64,000 nt of DNA, taken from NCBI GenBank assembly GCA_965219345.1, contig OZ244732.1:1120001-1184000 (forward strand). The letters are read 5' to 3'. The position numbers and the translations under genes are program-made. The notes below the pieces were generated by a model. The model was not told the DNA's origin, made no database searches, and worked only from the letters and a program-made list of their open reading frames with translations. Shown piece by piece: positions 2,984 through 53,772 of this stretch (position 1 is the first letter of the stretch; the number at the start of each line of letters is the position of its first letter). Origin of the DNA: Nitrosopumilus sp. Its GTDB lineage: Archaea > Thermoproteota > Nitrososphaeria > Nitrososphaerales > Nitrosopumilaceae.

Positions 2984-3037
2984 TCATACTCTGATTTCTC
3001 CAGACATTAGTTTTGAAAGTAAAGAATCACGTAATGT
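2984..3037 (-). pseudogene. hsdS: Third hsdS remnant (C-terminal 17 aa only)
   Basis: Reverse complement translates to TLRDSLLSKLMSGEIRV*. Confidence 0.75.
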
Positions 3038-3039
3038 TT

Positions 3040-3246
3040 AGTTATCTACACGAGTCTTCAGTATCACGCAACTCACTTGTATTAGATATTAGTGAGATAT
3101 TCAAACCAATGATAGTAGACAAAACTATCTTTAGGATACTAAACAACAAGACAATACGTCCCCAACACTTTGATTCTAAACTAAATGGTGTGCTGTTAAA
3201 TGATGTCGGAAAGAAATTATTTGTAAAAGAGTATGTTGGCGCCTGA
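3040..3246 (+). pseudogene. cas1: CRISPR-associated Cas1 (type I-B-like), fragment of the C-terminal domain
   Basis: SYLHE...SLVLDISEIFKPMIVD...LLNDVGKKLFVKEY carries the Cas1 catalytic H and D/E region; adjacent to a CRISPR repeat. Confidence 0.85.
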
Positions 3247-3247
3247 C

Positions 3248-3343
3248 GTTTGAATCGAACTATTACAGGATTGAAATGTGATTGCGACAGTATCGATTGT
3301 AACTTTGATATTACCTTTTGAATCAAACTATTAGGATTAAAAT
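3248..3343 (+). CRISPR. Relic CRISPR array: 30-bp repeat, 38-bp spacer, degenerate terminal repeat
   Basis: gtttgaatcgaactattacaggattgaaat (3248-3277, canonical ATTGAAA(N) end); spacer 3278-3315; ttttgaatcaaactattaggattaaaat (3316-3343). Confidence 0.85.
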
Positions 3344-6690: not shown

Positions 6691-9600
6691 TTAATTGAAT
6701 ATGGTCATAAAAAAATCAGCTATTTTGAGACCCTGTTTTTTTAATAAATCAAACACCATATCAAAAACATTATCTGGATCTGCTACTGGCTCTGGATCCA
6801 TAACAATAATCTCTGGCTCTGGATCCATAACAATAATCTCTGGCTCTGGATCCATAACAATAATCTCTGGCTCTGGATCCATAACAATAGTCTCTGACTC
6901 TGGTTCCATAACAATAATCTCTGGCTCTGGAGGAGGGGAAATAAATTCTATATGGGATTCAAATGTAACTCCCAAGGGCTCAAACAACACCTTATAACCG
7001 CTACAACTAGATCCAAAAGATACTGGTAGTTCAGCATACCTTGAGCTTCTATCATAAATCTTAACTTTGAGATTACCTGCATCTAAAGGAATACCATCAA
7101 AGGAAAAGGCATAAAACGTGATGGGAATCCGTTGTGTCTTGATATAATTTCCAAAGTCTATATCAGAAGATACATCACTTCCAAAATATCCTGAGATGGA
7201 ATTTGTTAATTCCGCAGACAGGTTATCGCCATAAGTTGAAGCGATAAGCAAAAAGTAGTCATTATTACACTGATCCCACAGCAAAATGTTGGGTGACATG
7301 GTGAAACCCACACCACTTCCACTACTACCTTCATTTCTTGAAGGTTCAGGTGTAGGATCTGGTTTAGGTTTAGATACCGGAACATCTACATTGATAGTTG
7401 ACGCTTCTTTTACACTGTAGCTGTCTGACACTGTTGGGGCATCAGCAAGATTCACAGCTGACATTCCAGTAACGGCGTAGCTGTCTGACACTGTTGGGGC
7501 ATCAGCAAGATTCACAGCTGACATTCCAGTAACGGCGTAGCTGTCTGAAATCATTGGGGCATCAGCAAGATTCACAGCTGACATTCCAGTAACGGCGTAG
7601 CTGTCTGAAATCATTGGGGCATCAGCAAGATTCACAGCTGACATTCCAGTAACGGCGTAGCTGTCTGAAATCATTGGGGCATCAGCAAGATTCACAGCTG
7701 ACATTCCAGTAACGGCGTAGCTGTCTGAAATCATTGGGGCATCAGCAAGATTCACAGCTGACATTCCAGTGGTGGTATAGCTGTCTGAAATCATTGGGGC
7801 ATCAGCAAGATTCACAGCTGACATTCCAGTGGTGGTATAGCTGTCTGAAATCATTGGGGCATCAGCAAGATTCACAGCTGACATTCCAGTGGTGGTATAG
7901 CTGTCTGAAATCATTGGGGCATCAGCAAGATTCACAGCTGACATTCCAGTGGTGGTATAGCTGTCTGACACTGTTGGGGCATCAGCAAGATTCACAGCTG
8001 ACATTCCAGTGGTGGTATAGCTGTCTGACACTGTTGGGGCATCAACACCACTCACAGCTAGCATCTCAGTCACATCATAGGAATCTGACACTGTTGGGGC
8101 ATCAGCAAGATTCACAGCTGACATTCTAGTGGTGGTATAGCTGTCTGACACTGTTGGGGCATCAACACCACTCACAGCTAGCATCTCAGTCACATCATAG
8201 GAATCTGACACTGTTGGGGCATCAGCAAGATTCACAGCTGACATTCTAGTGGTGGTATAGCTGTCTGACACTGTTGGGGCATCAACACCACTCACAGCTA
8301 GCATCTCAGTCACATCATAGGAATCTGACACTGTTGGGGCATCAGCAAGATTCACAGCTGACATTCTAGTGGTGGTATAGCTGTCTGACACTGTTGGGGC
8401 ATCAACACCACTCACAGCTAGCATCTCAGTCACATCATAGGAATCTGACACTGTTGGGGCATCAGCAAGATTCACAGCTGACATTCCAGTGGTGGTATAG
8501 CTGTCTGAAATCATTGGGGCATCAGCAAGATTCACAGCTGACATTCCAGTGGTGGTATAGCTGTCTGACACTGTTGGGGCATCAGCAAGATTCACAGCTG
8601 ACATTCTAGTGGTGGTATAGCTGTCTGACACTGTTGGGGCATCAACACCACTCACAGCTAGCATCTCAGTCACATCATAGGAATCTGACACTGTTGGGGC
8701 ATCAGCAAGATTCACAGCTGACATTCTAGTGGTGGTATAGCTGTCTGACACTGTTGGGGCATCAACACCACTCACAGCTAGCATCTCAGTCACATCATAG
8801 GAATCTGACACTGTTGGGGCATCAGCAAGATTCACAGCTGACATTCTAGTGGTGGTATAGCTGTCTGACACTGTTGGGGCATCAACACCACTCACAGCTA
8901 GCATCTCAGTCACATCATAGGAATCTGACACTGTTGGGGCATCAGCAAGATTCACAGCTGACATTCTAGTGGTGGTATAGCTGTCTGACACTGTTGGGGC
9001 ATCAACACCACTCACAGCTAGCATCTCAGTCACATCATAGGAATCTGACACTGTTGGGGCATCAGCAAGATTCACAGCTGACATTCTAGTGGTGGTATAG
9101 CTGTCTGACACTGTTGGGGCATCAACACCACTCACAGCTAGCATCTCAGTCACATCATAGGAATCTGACACTGTTGGGGCATCAGCAAGATTCACAGCTG
9201 ACATTCTAGTGGTGGTATAGCTGTCTGACACTGTTGGGGCATCAACACCACTCACAGCTAGCATCTCAGTCACATCATAGGAATCTGACACTGTTGGGGC
9301 ATCAGCAAGATTCACAGCTGACATTCCAGTGGTGGTATAGCTGTCTGACACTGTTGGGGCATCAACACCACTCACAGCTAGCATCTCAGTCACATCATAG
9401 GAATCTGACACTGTTGGGGCATCAGCAAGATTCACAGCTGACATTCTAGTGGTGGTATAGCTGTCTGACACTGTTGGGGCATCAACACCACTCACAGCTA
9501 GCATCTCAGTCACATCATAGGAATCTGACACTGTTGGGGCATCAACACCACTCACAACCAGCATCTCAGTCACATCATAGGAATCTGACACTGTTGGAAT

Positions 9601-12600
9601 GTCTACACCACTCACAACCAGCATCTCAGTCACATCATAGGAATCTGACACTGTTGGAATGTCTACACCACTCACAGCTAGCATCTCAGTCACATCATAG
9701 GAATCTGACACTGTTGGAATGTCTACACCACTCACAGCTAGCATCTCAGTCACATCATAGGAATCTGACACTGTTGGAATGTCTACACCACTCACAACCA
9801 GCATCTCAGTCACATCATAGGAATCTGACACTGTTGGAATGTCTACACCACTCACAACCAGCATCTCAGTCACATCATAGGAATCTGACACTGTTGGAAT
9901 GTCTACACCACTCACAGCTAACATCTCAGTCACATCATAGGAATCTGACACTGTTGGAATGTCTACACCACTCACAGCTAGCATCTCAGTCACATCATAG
10001 GAATCTGACACTGTTGGAATGTCTACACCACTCACAACCAGCATCTCAGTCACATCATAGGAATCTGACACTGTTGGAATGTCTACACCACTCACAACCA
10101 GCATCTCAGTCACATCATAGGAATCTGACACTGTTGGAATGTCTACACCACTCACAACCAGCATCTCAGTCACATCATAGGAATCTGACACTGTTGGAAT
10201 GTCTACACCACTCACAGCTAGCATCTCAGTCACATCATAGGAATCTGACACTGTTGGAATGTCTACACCACTCACAACCAGCATCTCAGTCACATCATAG
10301 GAATCTGACACTGTTGGAATGTCTACACCACTCACAACCAGCATCTCAGTCACATCATAGGAATCTGACACTGTTGGAATGTCTACACCACTCACAACCA
10401 GCATCTCAGTCACATCATAGGAATCTGACACTGTTGGAATGTCTACACCACTCACAACCAGCATCTCAGTCACATCATAGGAATCTGACACTGTTGGAAT
10501 GTCTACACCACTCACAGCTAGCATCTCAGTCACATCATAGGAATCTGACACTGTTGGAATGTCTACACCACTCACAGCCAGCATCTCAGTCACATCATAG
10601 GAATCTGACACTGTTGGAATGTCTACACCACTCACAGCCAGCATCTCAGTCACATCATAGGAATCTGACACTGTTGGGGCATCAACACCACTCACAACCA
10701 GCATCTCAGTCACATCATAGGAATCTGACACTGTTGGGGCATCAACACCACTCACAGCTAACATTTCAATGAATTTGATTATCTGGATGCCGTCATCAAA
10801 CTTGCTTGCAACTATCGCATATATTGTATTGTTAATAGTAAAGGTCTCAACGTCATTTGCACCGTCAAGTTCTTCATAACCACCAACGCCATCAGTTGCA
10901 TGCGATACAGCAAAAGGAGAAGCAGGATCTGATATGTCAATTATCTGGATGCCGTCATCAAGCAAGCTTGCAACTATAGCATATGTCGCACCATTAATCT
11001 CAAATACGTTAACACCAGCTGCACCGCCAAGTTCTTCATAACCACCAACGCCATCAGTTGCATGCGATACAGCAAAAGGAGAAGCAGGATCTGATATGTC
11101 AATTATCTGGATGCCGCCATCAAACAAGCTTACAACTATAGCATATGTCGCACCATTAATCTCAAACACGTTAACACCATTTGCACCGCCAAGTTCTTCA
11201 TAACCACCAACGCCATCAGTTGCATGCGATACAGCAAAAGGAGAAGCAGGATCTGATATGTCAATTATCTGGATGCCGCCATCAAACAAGCTTACAACTA
11301 TAGCATATGTCGCACCATTAATCTCAAACACGTCAACGTCATTTGCACCGCCAAGTTCTTCATAACCACCAACGCCATCAGTTGCATGCGATACAGCAAA
11401 AGGAGAAGCAGGATCTGATATGTCAATTATCTGGATGCCGTTATCATTAACGCTTACAACTATAGCATATGTCGCACCATTAATCTCAAACACGTTAACA
11501 CCATTTGCACCGCCAAGTTCTTCATAACCACCAACGCCATCAGTTGCATGCGATACAGCAAAAGGAGAAGCAGGATCTGATATGTCAATTATCTGGATGC
11601 CGTTATCATTAAAGCTTGCAACTATAGCATATGTCGCACCATTAATCTCAAACACGTTAACACCAGCTGCACCCTCAAGTTCTTCATAACCACCAACGCC
11701 ATCAGTTGCATGCGATACAGCCAAAGGAGAATCAGGGTCTGATATGTCAATTATCTGGATGCCGTCATCAAACTGGCCAGCAACTATAGCATATGTCATA
11801 CTGCCAATCTCAAACACGTCAACGTCATTTGCACCGCCAAGTTCTTCATAACCACCAACGCCATCAGTTGCATGCGATACAGCCAAAGGAGAAGCAGGAT
11901 CTGATATGTCAATTATCTGGATGCCGTCATCAAATAAGCTTGCAACTATAGCATATGTCGCACCATTAATCTCAAACACGTTAACACCAGCTGCACCCTC
12001 AAGTTCTTCATAACCACCAACGCCATCAGTTGCATGCGATACAGCAAAGGGAGAAGCAGGATCTGATATGTCAATTATCTGGATGCCGTCATCAAGATAG
12101 CCAGCAACTATAGCATATGTCGCACCATTAATCTCAAACACGTCAACGTCATTTGCACCCTCAAGTTCTTCATAACCACCAACGCCATCAGTTGCATGCG
12201 ATACAGCCAAAGGAGAATCAGGGTCTGATATGTCAATTATCTGGATGCCGTCATCAAGATAGCCAGCAACTATAGCATATGTCATACTGCCAATCTCAAA
12301 CACGTCAACACCAGCTGCACCCTCAAGTTCTTCATAACCACCAACGCCATCAGTTGCATGCGATACAGCAAAGGGAGAAGCAGGATCTGATATGTCAATT
12401 ATCTGGATGCTGTCATCACTAAAACTTGTAACTATAGCATATGTCATACTGCCAATCTCAAACACGTCAACGTCATTTGCACCATTAAGTTCTCCATAAC
12501 CACCAACGCCATCAGTTGCATGCGATACAGCAAAGGGAGAAGCAGGATCTGATATGTCAATTATCTGGATGCCGTCATCAAACTGACCAGCAACTATAGC

Positions 12601-13608
12601 ATATGTCATACTGCCAATCTCAAACACGTCAACGTCATTTGCACCCTCAAGTTCTTCATAACCACCAACGCCATCAGTTGCATGCGATACAGCAAAGGGA
12701 GAAGCAGGATCTGATATGTCAATTATCTGGATGCCGTCATCTGTACGACTTGCAACTATAGCATATGTCGCACCATTAATCTCAAACACGTCAACGTCAT
12801 TTGCACCCTCAAGTTCTTCATAACCACCAACGCCATCAGTTGCATGCGATACAGCCAAAGGAGAAGCAGGGTCTGATATGTCAATTATCTGGATGCCGTT
12901 ATCAAACCAGCTTGCAACTATAGCATATGTCATATTGTTAATAGTAAAGAACTCAGCATCAATTTCACTTGTAAATTTTTGATAAGTGTCATAAATATCA
13001 GTTACACTGGCCACAGGTGAGATAGAAATATTACTCTTAGTTACAACCATACCATATACTTCTTTACTGACAAATGAAAATAAGATTAAAATTACAAGTG
13101 TTAAAATTAATAAATAATTGTTTAGAGAATTATGTATTGTAATATATTCATAGGAATGAATCTGCCGTCTCAGTTTTTGATTGTAGCATATATTTATAAA
13201 AACATTGTATTTTTTTATACCCACACAATGATTGGTCAATAAAGTTGATATGTAGCTATGATGGTGTCTTGATCTTGTAATCTTTTGCATAACACTGTAT
13301 AGTTTAATCTGAAAACCCAAGACTGAAAATGCACAGCTAACTATGAGAATGAAATGCAAGACAAGCAAGAAAAATAAAACCATATAATTATCCAAAGCTT
13401 GCCATTCAAAAAACAACATGTAACTGTCTGCAAATTCTAGTTTTCTAAGTATGGCATCATGGTGATGCTCTTCAGTAGAATCATAACTTGCATCATATAA
13501 AATGTAGTGCTTTGCACCATCATTATCATAAGAGTCAGAGTATCCTATTCCGCCTAATAAAAACACAGATAACAATATGTTAAAAGAAACAAGAATATGT
13601 TTGTTCAA
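6691..13608 (-). CDS. Giant repetitive cell-surface protein/adhesin: 14 LVIVD-type beta-propeller blades, 20-aa repeat stalk, Pro/Glu linker, amphipathic C-terminus
   Basis: 2305-aa ORF; YAIVA...GIQIIDISDP repeats; hydrophobic N-terminal segments (true start uncertain). Confidence 0.85.
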   Translation of the reverse strand: MNKHILVSFNILLSVFLLGGIGYSDSYDNDGAKHYILYDASYDSTEEHHHDAILRKLEFADSYMLFFEWQALDNYMVLFFLLVLHFILIVSCAFSVLGFQIKLYSVMQKITRSRHHHSYISTLLTNHCVGIKKYNVFINICYNQKLRRQIHSYEYITIHNSLNNYLLILTLVILILFSFVSKEVYGMVVTKSNISISPVASVTDIYDTYQKFTSEIDAEFFTINNMTYAIVASWFDNGIQIIDISDPASPLAVSHATDGVGGYEELEGANDVDVFEINGATYAIVASRTDDGIQIIDISDPASPFAVSHATDGVGGYEELEGANDVDVFEIGSMTYAIVAGQFDDGIQIIDISDPASPFAVSHATDGVGGYGELNGANDVDVFEIGSMTYAIVTSFSDDSIQIIDISDPASPFAVSHATDGVGGYEELEGAAGVDVFEIGSMTYAIVAGYLDDGIQIIDISDPDSPLAVSHATDGVGGYEELEGANDVDVFEINGATYAIVAGYLDDGIQIIDISDPASPFAVSHATDGVGGYEELEGAAGVNVFEINGATYAIVASLFDDGIQIIDISDPASPLAVSHATDGVGGYEELGGANDVDVFEIGSMTYAIVAGQFDDGIQIIDISDPDSPLAVSHATDGVGGYEELEGAAGVNVFEINGATYAIVASFNDNGIQIIDISDPASPFAVSHATDGVGGYEELGGANGVNVFEINGATYAIVVSVNDNGIQIIDISDPASPFAVSHATDGVGGYEELGGANDVDVFEINGATYAIVVSLFDGGIQIIDISDPASPFAVSHATDGVGGYEELGGANGVNVFEINGATYAIVVSLFDGGIQIIDISDPASPFAVSHATDGVGGYEELGGAAGVNVFEINGATYAIVASLLDDGIQIIDISDPASPFAVSHATDGVGGYEELDGANDVETFTINNTIYAIVASKFDDGIQIIKFIEMLAVSGVDAPTVSDSYDVTEMLVVSGVDAPTVSDSYDVTEMLAVSGVDIPTVSDSYDVTEMLAVSGVDIPTVSDSYDVTEMLAVSGVDIPTVSDSYDVTEMLVVSGVDIPTVSDSYDVTEMLVVSGVDIPTVSDSYDVTEMLVVSGVDIPTVSDSYDVTEMLVVSGVDIPTVSDSYDVTEMLAVSGVDIPTVSDSYDVTEMLVVSGVDIPTVSDSYDVTEMLVVSGVDIPTVSDSYDVTEMLVVSGVDIPTVSDSYDVTEMLAVSGVDIPTVSDSYDVTEMLAVSGVDIPTVSDSYDVTEMLVVSGVDIPTVSDSYDVTEMLVVSGVDIPTVSDSYDVTEMLAVSGVDIPTVSDSYDVTEMLAVSGVDIPTVSDSYDVTEMLVVSGVDIPTVSDSYDVTEMLVVSGVDAPTVSDSYDVTEMLAVSGVDAPTVSDSYTTTRMSAVNLADAPTVSDSYDVTEMLAVSGVDAPTVSDSYTTTGMSAVNLADAPTVSDSYDVTEMLAVSGVDAPTVSDSYTTTRMSAVNLADAPTVSDSYDVTEMLAVSGVDAPTVSDSYTTTRMSAVNLADAPTVSDSYDVTEMLAVSGVDAPTVSDSYTTTRMSAVNLADAPTVSDSYDVTEMLAVSGVDAPTVSDSYTTTRMSAVNLADAPTVSDSYDVTEMLAVSGVDAPTVSDSYTTTRMSAVNLADAPTVSDSYDVTEMLAVSGVDAPTVSDSYTTTRMSAVNLADAPTVSDSYTTTGMSAVNLADAPMISDSYTTTGMSAVNLADAPTVSDSYDVTEMLAVSGVDAPTVSDSYTTTRMSAVNLADAPTVSDSYDVTEMLAVSGVDAPTVSDSYTTTRMSAVNLADAPTVSDSYDVTEMLAVSGVDAPTVSDSYTTTRMSAVNLADAPTVSDSYDVTEMLAVSGVDAPTVSDSYTTTGMSAVNLADAPTVSDSYTTTGMSAVNLADAPMISDSYTTTGMSAVNLADAPMISDSYTTTGMSAVNLADAPMISDSYTTTGMSAVNLADAPMISDSYAVTGMSAVNLADAPMISDSYAVTGMSAVNLADAPMISDSYAVTGMSAVNLADAPMISDSYAVTGMSAVNLADAPTVSDSYAVTGMSAVNLADAPTVSDSYSVKEASTINVDVPVSKPKPDPTPEPSRNEGSSGSGVGFTMSPNILLWDQCNNDYFLLIASTYGDNLSAELTNSISGYFGSDVSSDIDFGNYIKTQRIPITFYAFSFDGIPLDAGNLKVKIYDRSSRYAELPVSFGSSCSGYKVLFEPLGVTFESHIEFISPPPEPEIIVMEPESETIVMDPEPEIIVMDPEPEIIVMDPEPEIIVMDPEPVADPDNVFDMVFDLLKKQGLKIADFFMTIFN
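6788..6930 (-). repeat. 27-bp tandem repeat, about 5 copies (PEPEIIVMD)
   Basis: ggctctggatccataacaataatctct repeated. Confidence 0.9.
7417..10768 (-). repeat. 60-bp coding tandem repeat, about 56 copies (EML(A/V)VSGVD(A/I)PTVSDSYDVT and (G/R)MSAVNLADAP(T/M)(V/I)SDSY variants)
   Basis: Visible as near-identical consecutive 60-nt lines from 7441 to 10741. Confidence 0.97.
10775..12950 (-). repeat. 162-bp (54-aa) coding tandem repeat, 14 LVIVD-like blades
   Basis: cttgcaacta recurs at 162-bp spacing (12911, 12749 ... about 10805); 14 (G/S)IQII motifs. Confidence 0.95.
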
Positions 13609-14835: not shown

Positions 14836-15102
14836 GTGAGAAAATCATTAATTCTAACTATATTATTTGTGGCTTCTTTAACCTCTCTTATAGCGGTATT
14901 GTATTCAACAACCACCTTTTTTGCTCCAACGATAAATGATACACCGGCTGTATATGATGATATGAAACTTGAGATATCTAATTCTGATATAGTTGATGTT
15001 TATGATAGTATAAACAGCAATAAAACTAGTGATTCATTTACTGATGAGGCAAAACATTACACCATAAACGCAGTAGATACACCTGTTATGAAAGAACCCT
15101 AA
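14836..15102 (+). CDS. Small membrane-anchored protein ending in a single stalk-repeat-like motif
   Basis: GTG start, TM helix, C-terminal YTINAVDTPVMKEP. Confidence 0.6.
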   Translation: MRKSLILTILFVASLTSLIAVLYSTTTFFAPTINDTPAVYDDMKLEISNSDIVDVYDSINSNKTSDSFTDEAKHYTINAVDTPVMKEP

Positions 15103-15182
15103 GGCAATTTGTTTTTGTTAGTATCTTTGAGTTTCTCATCCGCGTTGTAGATACACCTGTTATGAAAGAACCCTAAGGCAAT
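15073..15182 (+). repeat. CRISPR-like unit: perfect 36-bp direct repeat flanking a 38-bp unique insert
   Basis: gtagatacacctgttatgaaagaaccctaaggcaat at 15073-15108 and 15147-15182. Confidence 0.9.
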
Positions 15183-15241
15183 CTTATAGTGTGTTGATCA
15201 ACTAGTAAATAAATTTGTTCTACCGATATTTGGAATTGTTT

Positions 15242-16028
15242 TATATGAAAATCACTTCCGCTAGTCATCGGCGTCCTCCTCCATCCATTTTGGGTTCTTT
15301 TTCCTGATCGCATCTGTGGCCCTTTTGTCGTCTGCCGTTGCGTCCCACAAAGCACGAACCATTGTCAGACAGTATGGTTGCAGGTGTGCCGAATTTCCCT
15401 ACTGCCTTTCTTAGTACCAGTACGGCATTCTCAGAGGTGGCCTGCATGAAGAGCCGTGCTGCCATGATGATGCACCGTGAGGAGTCATCCAGATACGTGA
15501 CCAGATGGAGCCCGCCAAGGCGCGGATCTCTCATGATGTGCCAGTCCACGTGCCACATGGCATTTGAGTATCTTCTCTCAAAGCGTACCCATTTGCGCTT
15601 CCTTGACTTGGCCACAGAGTGTATGGCCGGTCCATTCTCCTTCATGATTCTGTATGTGCTTCTGTAGCTTATGTTATGGTCTTCCTGCAGGTGCATGGCA
15701 ATGCGTACCACTCCAACCGGTTCTTTGCGGTGCATGTCCAATACTGCCCGTCTCTCCTGGCGTGGGCAGAAGAATCTGCCTTCTTCTTGGGTTGCGTTGT
15801 ATGTGATGCGTGTCCGTACTGCAAAACTCGGCCCACAGCTACTGGATGCGCCTTTGTTACCTTGAGCTCCGATGCAATCTCTGCCGTGGATCTCTTCTTC
15901 TTGCACTGGGCAGCGGCGTATCTGATCTGCCCCCTGTTAGTCTGACTCTCATCTGCCTTGCTGATCGGTACAGCCCAACGTAGTCCTTTGCAAGTCTCCT
16001 AAAAGTGAGGCGAAATGATTTCGGTACA
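15242..16028 (-). mobile_element. Degenerate IS481-family element (frameshifted rve/DDE transposase, ATG at about 15952)
   Basis: RKKWVRFER.YSNAMWHVDW-type motif, YLDDSSR, ILSDNGSCF; visibly GC-richer than flanks; imperfect ends tgtaccgaaatcatttcg / tatatgaaaatcacttcc. Confidence 0.8.
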
Positions 16029-52700: not shown

Positions 52701-53687
52701 ATGAATTTTGCATATTATGTTATAGCTATAGTTGGCGTTCTTGCTGCAATAATTTTAGGATTGATTGCTGCAGCACCTGATGATATTATAGAACCAAGAG
52801 TAGCTTCTGTTGAAGATATTTCTGTCAATTCTTACATTCTGCCAAAAACTGCAACTGTGGGTGATATTTTACTTATTGAAATTGAGTTTAGAGATGATGG
52901 AAAGAAAATTGTTGATCATGTAAATTATGATATAATTGCTACACAAGATGGAGATACAATTCTTTCAGAACCTGGTTCTCATAGACACCCTGGAATGCAT
53001 CCAATTCATGAAACTAGTGTATTAAGCGAGTCTCCACTTGAAATTCAAGTTACTTTACAAGGTTTAGGTCATGGTGATGATATCTCAGAACCAAAGGGAG
53101 ATGTAACTACTTTGACTGTTGATCCTGAAGTTGGACCAATTGCATGTACTTTGGAACATGCACCAGTTTGTGGTGTTGATGGTGAAACATATGGTAATTT
53201 GTGTATGTTAGATGCTAGTCATATTAAATTAGATTATGAAGGTGAATGTGTGATTGCACAACCAGAACCAGTTGAAGAGAAACCAACTACTTTAGCAGAT
53301 AATGCAGAAGTAACAATTGGAACAGTAGAACAATCTGCGTTTGGTCAGGACTGTGTGGCAGATGGTTGTTACACGCCAAATTCTGCAACTATTGATGTTG
53401 GTGGTGTTGTAACAATGACAAACACAGATACTACTGGAGTACATACATTCACATCCGGAACAGTTGATGGATTTACTCCTTCTCCAAATGGTACATTTGA
53501 TTCAGATATCCTATTATCGGGAGATTCATTTGAATGGATTCCAGATACTGCAGGTGAAGTTCCTTACTATTGTGTGCTTCATACTTGGATGCAAGGCACA
53601 ATCATAGTACAAGAAGCAGAAGAAGAAATCATGGAAGAAGTTGAAGCAACACCAGAACCAGTTGCAGAAACATCGAACCATCAATAG
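52701..53687 (+). CDS. Membrane-anchored Kazal-domain plus plastocyanin-like blue-copper protein, probably 3'-truncated
   Basis: CTLEHAPVCGVDGETYGNLC (Kazal); HTFTSG...YYCVLHTWM (type-1 Cu site). Confidence 0.85.
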   Translation: MNFAYYVIAIVGVLAAIILGLIAAAPDDIIEPRVASVEDISVNSYILPKTATVGDILLIEIEFRDDGKKIVDHVNYDIIATQDGDTILSEPGSHRHPGMHPIHETSVLSESPLEIQVTLQGLGHGDDISEPKGDVTTLTVDPEVGPIACTLEHAPVCGVDGETYGNLCMLDASHIKLDYEGECVIAQPEPVEEKPTTLADNAEVTIGTVEQSAFGQDCVADGCYTPNSATIDVGGVVTMTNTDTTGVHTFTSGTVDGFTPSPNGTFDSDILLSGDSFEWIPDTAGEVPYYCVLHTWMQGTIIVQEAEEEIMEEVEATPEPVAETSNHQ

Positions 53688-53772
53688 CACTAACAATATT
53701 GCATGCTTTTGACAATTTCCATCAATGTTAATGATGTTGCAGAAACATCGAATCATCAGTAGCACTAACAAT
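53661..53772 (+). repeat. CRISPR-like unit: 37-bp direct repeat (2 mismatches) flanking a 38-bp insert
   Basis: gttgcagaaacatcgaa(c/t)catca(a/g)tagcactaacaat at 53661-53697 and 53736-53772. Confidence 0.9.

Follow-up and report, generated by a model that had tools for sequence, protein, structure and literature searches.

At positions 15073–15182 of the window, the whole 64,000-nt stretch analysed here (G000:C1:1120001–1184000), we identified a repeat–insert–repeat unit that we consider, with a probability of about 0.88, to be a single off-target spacer integration by the organism's own type I-G Cas4/Cas1–Cas2; we infer the catalysis from the geometry of the unit. The first-pass annotation of this DNA had proposed a natural archaeal instance of off-target Cas1–Cas2 integration, and our analysis supports the proposal, with a distant type I-G locus as the responsible system. 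The case is of the known "neo-CRISPR" kind, but it is natural, archaeal, of type I-G, far more numerous per genome and still polymorphic. Features inside the window are numbered from its first letter, while units elsewhere are named by genome position.

A spacer-sized insert between two copies of a gene end

The unit consists of two identical 36-mers, at 15073–15108 (copy 1) and 15147–15182 (copy 2), with a start-to-start spacing of 74, which bracket a 38-bp insert, the ectopic spacer, at 15109–15146. A plus-strand host ORF at 14836–15102 ends within copy 1, which contains its final nine codons (VDTPVMKEP) and its TAA stop, and the ORF is intact because its end is preserved in this copy. The ORF specifies 88 aa with a hydrophobic N-terminus, for which no Pfam family was found. 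The perfect duplication at the 3′ end of the gene, the unique insert between the copies, and the GT start and CAAT end of both duplicated segments are all as the first-pass annotation had described them. Genome-wide, the 36-mer occurs exactly twice and the insert once. Two matches to the 36-mer were found in the window at up to 3 mismatches, and none of 100 dinucleotide shuffles contained any match; from base composition alone, 4.6e-13 perfect 36-mer pairs would be expected across the genome at spacings of 45–120.

Sequence comparison shows that the insert is not derived from its flanks, which disposes of an origin from adjacent sequence, one of the alternatives that the annotation had named. 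Another was that the 36-mer might be the repeat of a normal array. With its two genomic copies, it is not: it is unlike either resident CRISPR repeat, lies outside the repeat family expected of a functional array, shares 10 of 36 positions with the true I-G repeat (hand count) and has neither the stem of that repeat nor its ATTGAAGC 3′ tag. Leader and true repeat are both absent at the site. Given that the pseudo-repeat is unrelated overall to the true repeat, the unit is most likely a neutral, non-functional scar that would yield no working crRNA, rather than a functioning mini-CRISPR, and it persists because copy 1 leaves the host ORF whole. Its position at a gene end probably reflects survivorship and not targeting, since other units sit inside ORFs and split them.

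The resident CRISPR–Cas systems

The genome, G000, comprises 1.87 Mb and a 41.6-kb contig at 36% GC. It carries an archaeal amoA and therefore belongs to an ammonia-oxidising archaeon. An intact type I-G locus is located at C1:1639572–1653821, 0.5 Mb from the unit at 15073–15182. Its array (C1:1641728–1653821) is built of 36-nt repeats with the sequence ATTTCCATAACGAAAAAGTTATGGCCCCATTGAAGC, 164 in number, of which all but one are exact. Spacer lengths of 35–40 nt account for 150 of the 163 spacers (35 nt, 8; 36 nt, 37; 37 nt, 35; 38 nt, 34; 39 nt, 23; 40 nt, 13), with the mode at 36–38. Directly upstream of the array lie a Cas4g/Cas1g fusion (754 bits against NF049935, cut-off 560, spanning profile positions 1–546 of 546), Cas2 and a 178-bp leader, and downstream, on the other strand, are Csb2, Cas7g, Cas8g1/Csx17 and Cas3g. 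The locus is thus a complete type I-G system. The annotation had suggested a comparison with the genome's own repeats and spacers, and this proved informative: repeats are 36 nt long and spacers mostly 35–40 nt, so that the duplication at 15073–15182 equals the repeat length and its 38-bp insert has the length of 34 of the 163 spacers.

The window itself contains a type I-B-like remnant at 3013–3343 on the plus strand, which forms part of the context of the unit and is not its source. It is made up of a Cas1 fragment ORF (3013–3246, 77 aa) that matches the C-terminal quarter of Cas1b (~70 residues), followed by a mini-array with a 30-nt repeat (3248–3277), a 38-nt spacer (3278–3315) and a decayed, degenerate second copy of the repeat (3316–3343). 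The first-pass annotation had compared the insert with this spacer at 3278 on account of their equal length. The element is real, but it was the wrong comparator: because it is an I-B-like remnant with a 30-nt repeat, the shared length of 38 nt is not telling. The machinery relevant to the unit at 15073–15182 is the I-G Cas4/Cas1–Cas2 locus, not the element at 3278. Only two Cas1 matches exist in G000, the I-G fusion and the C-terminal fragment at 3013–3246, and the genome therefore has no casposase. A near-identical copy of the I-B-like remnant repeat, with one mismatch over the first 29 nt, is present in a relative (G164, locus L049).

Two features lie close to the adaptation genes of the I-G locus. 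An ectopic unit at C1:1638625 is situated ~1 kb upstream of cas4/1, and the self-protospacer of unit 915773 (C1:1636412–1636448) is found ~3 kb upstream of the same gene. Integration and sampling may both be favoured near the CRISPR locus.

A genome-wide class of ectopic units

The genome-wide duplication scan proposed in the first-pass annotation recovered about 30 units of like geometry. We scanned G000 for direct repeats at offsets of 30–160, extending 12-nt exact seeds with mismatches, and excluded the true array, tandem-repeat regions and pairs that had a neighbouring repeat pair at 400 bp or closer. Of the 78 isolated pairs that were left after filtering, 30 have a spacing of 70–76 bp, the period of the I-G array; others fall at spacings of 64–68 (9 pairs), 120 (5 pairs) and 156 (4 pairs), and nearly all other bins hold 0–3. 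Tabulating duplication length against insert length reveals a sharp peak at duplications of 36–38 bp and inserts of 33–40 bp. By hand count, the repeats are perfect in 19 of the 29 listed pairs with a spacing of 70–76. Each ectopic unit has a different "repeat", and the inserts differ between sites and share no ends, with the exception of 37490/243305 and 1483340/1826944, in which the whole unit has been copied along with a repeated element. Several of the 39 listed pairs are in frame and may be ordinary intragenic or protein repeats (for example, 333438, 431953, 1464128, 1573079 and 1573481), for which reason we put the size of the class at about 25–30 units. A search of G000 for multi-spacer neo-arrays found none, no unit having more than one insert; the same search turned up one further single unit, at C1:88227.

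The nine isolated pairs with a spacing of 64–68 have duplications of about 30–32 bp (for example, 1251065, 1265409, 1448839, 1483340 and 1573079). Some of them are in frame and may be protein repeats. This group possibly represents scars of a decayed I-B adaptation module, which would have used a 30-nt repeat.

The second insert that the annotation had reported in the window, at 53698, was also recovered. Here, 37-nt repeats at 53661–53697 and 53736–53772, 95% identical with 2 mismatches, enclose a 38-bp insert at 53698–53735. This unit (53661–53772) lies at the 3′ end of an ORF whose 332-aa product contains a Kazal-type domain. The gene downstream of it, from 53786 onward, lacks its 5′ part in G000, and the same gene in two relatives, G007 (92% identity) and G052, reaches roughly 230 nt further upstream (L012 and L013), which places a rearrangement junction about 14 bp beyond the unit. 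When an orthologous empty site was sought for this unit, the upstream sequence turned out not to be syntenic in relatives. The region of another unit, 1519410, was not found in 40 congeners.

Occupied and empty sites

The annotation's third alternative, that relatives share the full unit as an ancestral arrangement, is contradicted by a contig from a public run, so that the unit is neither fixed nor ancestral. In run X4, a 1579-nt contig with a depth of 25.4 joins 15072 to 15147 and skips 74 bp, with 36 letters at the junction that fit both sides; no X4 contig covers 15078–15131. As the skip is exactly 74 bp, an allele with one 36-mer and no insert exists. The filled repeat–insert–repeat form is present in X1 (15079–15176), which belongs to the same study as X4, and in X5 (15073–15176), which comes from another study. 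Among the runs listed as containing the stretch there was no RNA run, which bears on its expression in neither direction. The integration is thus still polymorphic in the population. The empty allele is a k-mer-graph contig, and a deletion between the 36-mers could recreate an empty site; because such secondary deletion is possible, the X4 allele alone gives no direction of change. Within X1, the contig depth is 34.9 in the insert compared with 59.4 and 57.4 in the flanks, which hints at a mixed population, although the depth of a contig is not reliable enough to establish one. Among 40 relatives, a search for the orthologous locus of the unit at 15073–15182 returned only chance-level matches of 27–39 nt, in 3 of the 40. 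Without an ortholog in these relatives, the locus is strain-specific and offers no cross-species empty site.

Other members of the class do offer such sites. The unit at C1:1339320 (L008, 621–730) interrupts the gene for an ABC-transporter permease, and the resulting halves match profile positions 1–85 and 66–174 of BPD_transp_1. The site is empty in 16 of 40 congeners, which carry one uninterrupted gene; on the subject, the alignments of the two flanks have 29–37 nt in common, and all 16 lack the 36-nt insert. The unit at C1:1339320 is a case of gene inactivation by CRISPR adaptation. Furthermore, unoccupied paralogous copies exist within G000 itself for about eight units or unit groups, namely 92343, 243305/37490, 333438, 404166/1448839, 919312, 1335276, 1503080 and the 1483340/1824847/1826944 family. 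This evidence at the level of the class is firmer than the X4 contig.

In one element family, the copy at C1:333045–333080 is empty, and the copies at 404166 and 1448839 hold different inserts. The latter two have their insertion sites a few bases apart, in a stretch that is locally palindromic. This element may be an integration hot spot.

Target choice

To describe the targets, we applied orientation-free expectation-maximisation to the ends and flanks of 24 units, using those with a duplication length (L) of 35–38 and dropping 37490 as a copy of 243305. The resulting motif scored 6.97 bits, compared with 3.91 ± 0.40 bits (maximum 5.16) in 60 control sets of random sites. One end of the motif is A-T-(T/G)-G, and its other end is (A/G)-C. 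The unit at 15073–15182 reads ATTGCC...TCTAC on its minus strand, and the true repeat reads ATTTCC...GAAGC. When ten exact-36 targets were scored against the ends of the true repeat, the value of 4.6 (controls, 3.84 ± 0.47) was equalled or exceeded by 6.45% of 2000 controls and is not significant. The target preference is therefore real but weak, and site choice is poorly explained, given that the similarity to the true repeat ends is not significant.

Origin of the inserts and flanking motif

Full-length matches to the organism's own chromosome, at an identity of at least 97%, were found for 6 of the 39 listed ectopic inserts and for 0 of the 163 array spacers. This is the difference that one would predict for ectopic units that do not arm interference. 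No second copy that could be the donor of the 38-bp insert at 15109–15146 is present in G000, and viral, genome and metagenome contigs contained no match to a codon-degenerate pattern of this insert. Its best match, at 33 of 38 nt, is in the relative G052, where TTC is the 5′ flank and the matched stretch codes for part of a signal peptide, its hydrophobic core (LFLLVPLSFSSA); of the five differences, four leave the amino acid unchanged. As the exact donor was not found, the TTC "PAM" is read from the G052 homolog and not from the donor. The insert at 53698–53735 is the reverse complement of a segment of an H+-pyrophosphatase gene and matches the gene of another relative, G067, at 35 of 38 nt, compared with 31 of 38 in the gene of G000 itself.

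In 5 of 8 contexts, the protospacer is immediately preceded by TTN on one strand or both, while 3 of the 8 have no TTN. From a TT frequency of 0.114, the chance per context is roughly 0.22, which corresponds to p of about 0.015 in a hand-calculated binomial test. The enrichment is suggestive but not decisive. For comparison, the PAM strand of the Methanosarcina barkeri type I-G system is 5′-GAA-3′, the complement of TTC, according to the available text of PMC10504553. The true array spacers matched no protospacer in the phage collection with either half of the array, and their short matches in 150 congeners were solitary repeat copies, not protospacers.

Relatives with and without type I-G

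The array query matched 15 of 150 congeners, most of them with arrays of the same repeat family. We compared ectopic units in G000 and four relatives over the initial 398,100 bp of contig 1, counting isolated pairs with L of 33–39 and inserts of 30–42. In this stretch, G000, with its I-G fusion, has 7 units. Five units each were found in G055, which has an I-G fusion and an array with the same repeat, and in G009, which has an I-G fusion and an array. By comparison, G079, with no Cas1 match, has 0 units, and G007, also with no Cas1 match, has 1 doubtful unit with 5 mismatches. The association of units with type I-G points the expected way in this small sample of four relatives with 398 kb each.

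Apparently solitary matches to the I-G repeat (35–44 nt, 88–98% identity) were seen in three further relatives: G017 (L048), G164 (L049) and G156 (L050). The array search yielded no other match in G017 and G164; in G156, the leader and first repeats were also matched.

Proposed mechanism and alternative explanations

Based on the geometry, we propose that a Cas4/1–Cas2 complex loaded with a 38-bp prespacer would have attacked each DNA strand once in the 3′ end of ORF 14836–15102, the two phosphodiester bonds concerned lying 36 bp from each other. Such a spacing would correspond to the complex's own 36-nt repeat, across which its ruler normally works. Repair of the gaps would then have left a copy of the 36-bp target on either side of the insert.

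Such a duplication could also have been produced by a different integrase with a ruler of ~36 bp, such as a casposase, a lost I-B adaptation module or a mobile-element enzyme. The Cas1b fragment and mini-array remnant within the same window lend this some credence, as do the nine pairs with a spacing of 64–68, whose ~30-nt duplications could be the product of an I-B module. We nevertheless regard it as improbable: the repeat of the I-B remnant is 30 nt and not 36, the two Cas1 matches in G000 include no casposase gene, and the inserts are all different, with no shared ends. Moreover, the duplications of Nitrosopumilus casposases measure 13 bp for family 1 and about 14 bp for family 2, as far as the accessible text of PMC8464041 goes. 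It is slightly less probable still that the unit is an artefact of repair, formed either at a staggered double-strand break with long overhangs and filler DNA or by replication slippage. Several inserts do copy chromosomal DNA, as filler DNA often does. However, both the duplication length and the insert length are fixed across about 30 sites, and the sampled stretches of the two Cas1-less relatives contain almost no units. We know of no repair route that yields a fixed duplication of 36–38 bp together with a fixed filler of 33–40 bp. Replication slippage gives rise to tandem copies without a unique insert, whereas here a unique insert separates the copies.

We also considered whether the unit is a functional element, either a one-spacer mini-CRISPR that produces a crRNA-like regulator or the 3′-UTR or terminator of ORF 14836–15102. 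The unit does directly follow the stop codon, and crRNA-like mini-arrays are known near cas loci, as described in the available part of 10.1101/2023.03.03.530964. This is very unlikely, in view of the low similarity of the pseudo-repeat to the true repeat (10 of 36 positions, with stem and ATTGAAGC 3′ tag missing), a "repeat" that differs in every ectopic unit, the empty allele in X4 that makes the site polymorphic, and the lack of conservation of the locus among 40 relatives. Assemblers can be misled by short perfect repeats, but an assembly or sequencing artefact is the least credible explanation, since contigs from two studies carry the repeat–insert–repeat form (X1, 15079–15176; X5, 15073–15176) and a like architecture with different sequences is seen at about 30 places in the genome and also in two further species. 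Off-target integration by the resident I-G Cas4/1–Cas2 accordingly remains our preferred reading of the unit.

Comparison with known systems

Off-target spacer integration by the type I-E Cas1–Cas2 of E. coli was reportedly described by Nivala, Shipman and Church in Nature Microbiology in 2018. In the portions available of 10.1101/148544, PMC7054753 and PMC6698737, such "neo-CRISPR" integration is shown for E. coli, while the evidence from two other species is circumstantial; for the E. coli CRISPR, artificial up-regulation of the acquisition machinery is needed (10.1101/148544, same limit). The unit described here resembles these events, as they appear in that text, in its spacer-sized insert, its repeat-length duplication, its non-CRISPR site and its host-derived pseudo-repeat. 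It differs in being natural, without overexpression, and archaeal, with an I-G Cas4/Cas1 fusion and a 36-nt ruler, in its numbers (about 30 units in a genome of 1.9 Mb, and units in three species or more) and in the segregation of an empty allele. Compared with E. coli neo-CRISPR, none of the ectopic units in G000 has grown beyond one spacer.

The resident system can be compared with the type I-G system of M. barkeri, which has been studied biochemically. The repeat families are nearly the same, the M. barkeri repeat starting with GTTTCCATAACCGAAAG and ending with GAATTGAAGC and that of G000 reading ATTTCCATAACGAAAAAG...CCATTGAAGC, and both systems have a Cas4/Cas1 fusion and, as far as the 8 contexts suggest for G000, a TTC-like PAM (PMC10504553, as far as its accessible text extends). 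Canonical I-G integration is directed to the leader–repeat junction, whereas the unit at 15073–15182 has neither leader nor true repeat. In vitro, only 60–70% of the spacer-side events of M. barkeri Cas4/1–Cas2 occurred at the correct site, according to the part of PMC10504553 available, which fits a sloppy enzyme. Ectopic acquisition in Streptococcus thermophilus is similar in that integration takes place away from the leader-proximal repeat; however, those events use true repeats within the array, at least in the available text of PMC7999890, while the unit at 15073–15182 uses an unrelated chromosomal sequence.

The family 1 casposase of Ca. Nitrosopumilus koreensis shares with the proposed reaction a Cas1-family integrase, a ruler-defined duplication and the same archaeal group (PMC8464041, accessible text). 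Casposons, in the same text, have a 13-bp duplication and terminal inverted repeats on their cargo, whereas the duplication at 15073–15182 is 36 bp and G000 has no casposase (PMC8464041). We therefore rejected a casposon or transposon insertion: the insert is 38 bp long and unique, the duplication is 36 bp and not 13–14, and there is no casposase. The literature consulted, which covered main text in part, that of PMC6563490 among it, and secondary accounts of the 2018 study, gave no earlier description for Thaumarchaeota or type I-G, and an earlier mention is possible.

At somewhat less than even odds, we tentatively suggest that the I-G Cas4/1–Cas2 of this genus inserts DNA continuously across the genome, as a mutagen and as a natural DNA recorder, which would leave dozens of polymorphic 36 + 37-bp units per genome outside the CRISPR array. 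On this reading, genes are split, as in the ABC permease, and both the organism's own chromosome and genes like those of related strains, such as the H+-PPase allele, are sampled. If true, the scars would form a readable archive of adaptation activity and of DNA traffic between strains, as well as a standing pool of proto-CRISPR seeds, and would carry a measurable fitness cost of adaptation. G000 and at least two congeners form a natural system in which each genome has tens of events that differ in age, with empty alleles for comparison. Several questions can be tested from sequence in this system: the fidelity of Cas1–Cas2 in the wild; the features that attract the I-G integrase without a leader; the sampling of self DNA before selection purges real arrays (6/39 versus 0/163); the cost to the host in disrupted genes; and whether new arrays are seeded by ectopic units.

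Other features of the window

A patch of 52–54% GC at 15240–16000, in a background of 29–36% GC, begins 60 bp from the unit at 15073–15182. It contains a truncated ORF for an IS481-family transposase (15265–15906, minus strand) and has four partial copies elsewhere in the genome at 77–81% identity; the run contigs show variant forms around 15320–15331. Further upstream, at 6691–13608 on the minus strand, lies a 2305-aa ORF that consists almost wholly of repeats, in which ~14 copies of a ~60-aa unit precede a 20-aa unit repeated ~48 times, the latter encoded by 60-nt tandem repeats, and the C-terminus carries a short PEPEIIVMD repeat.
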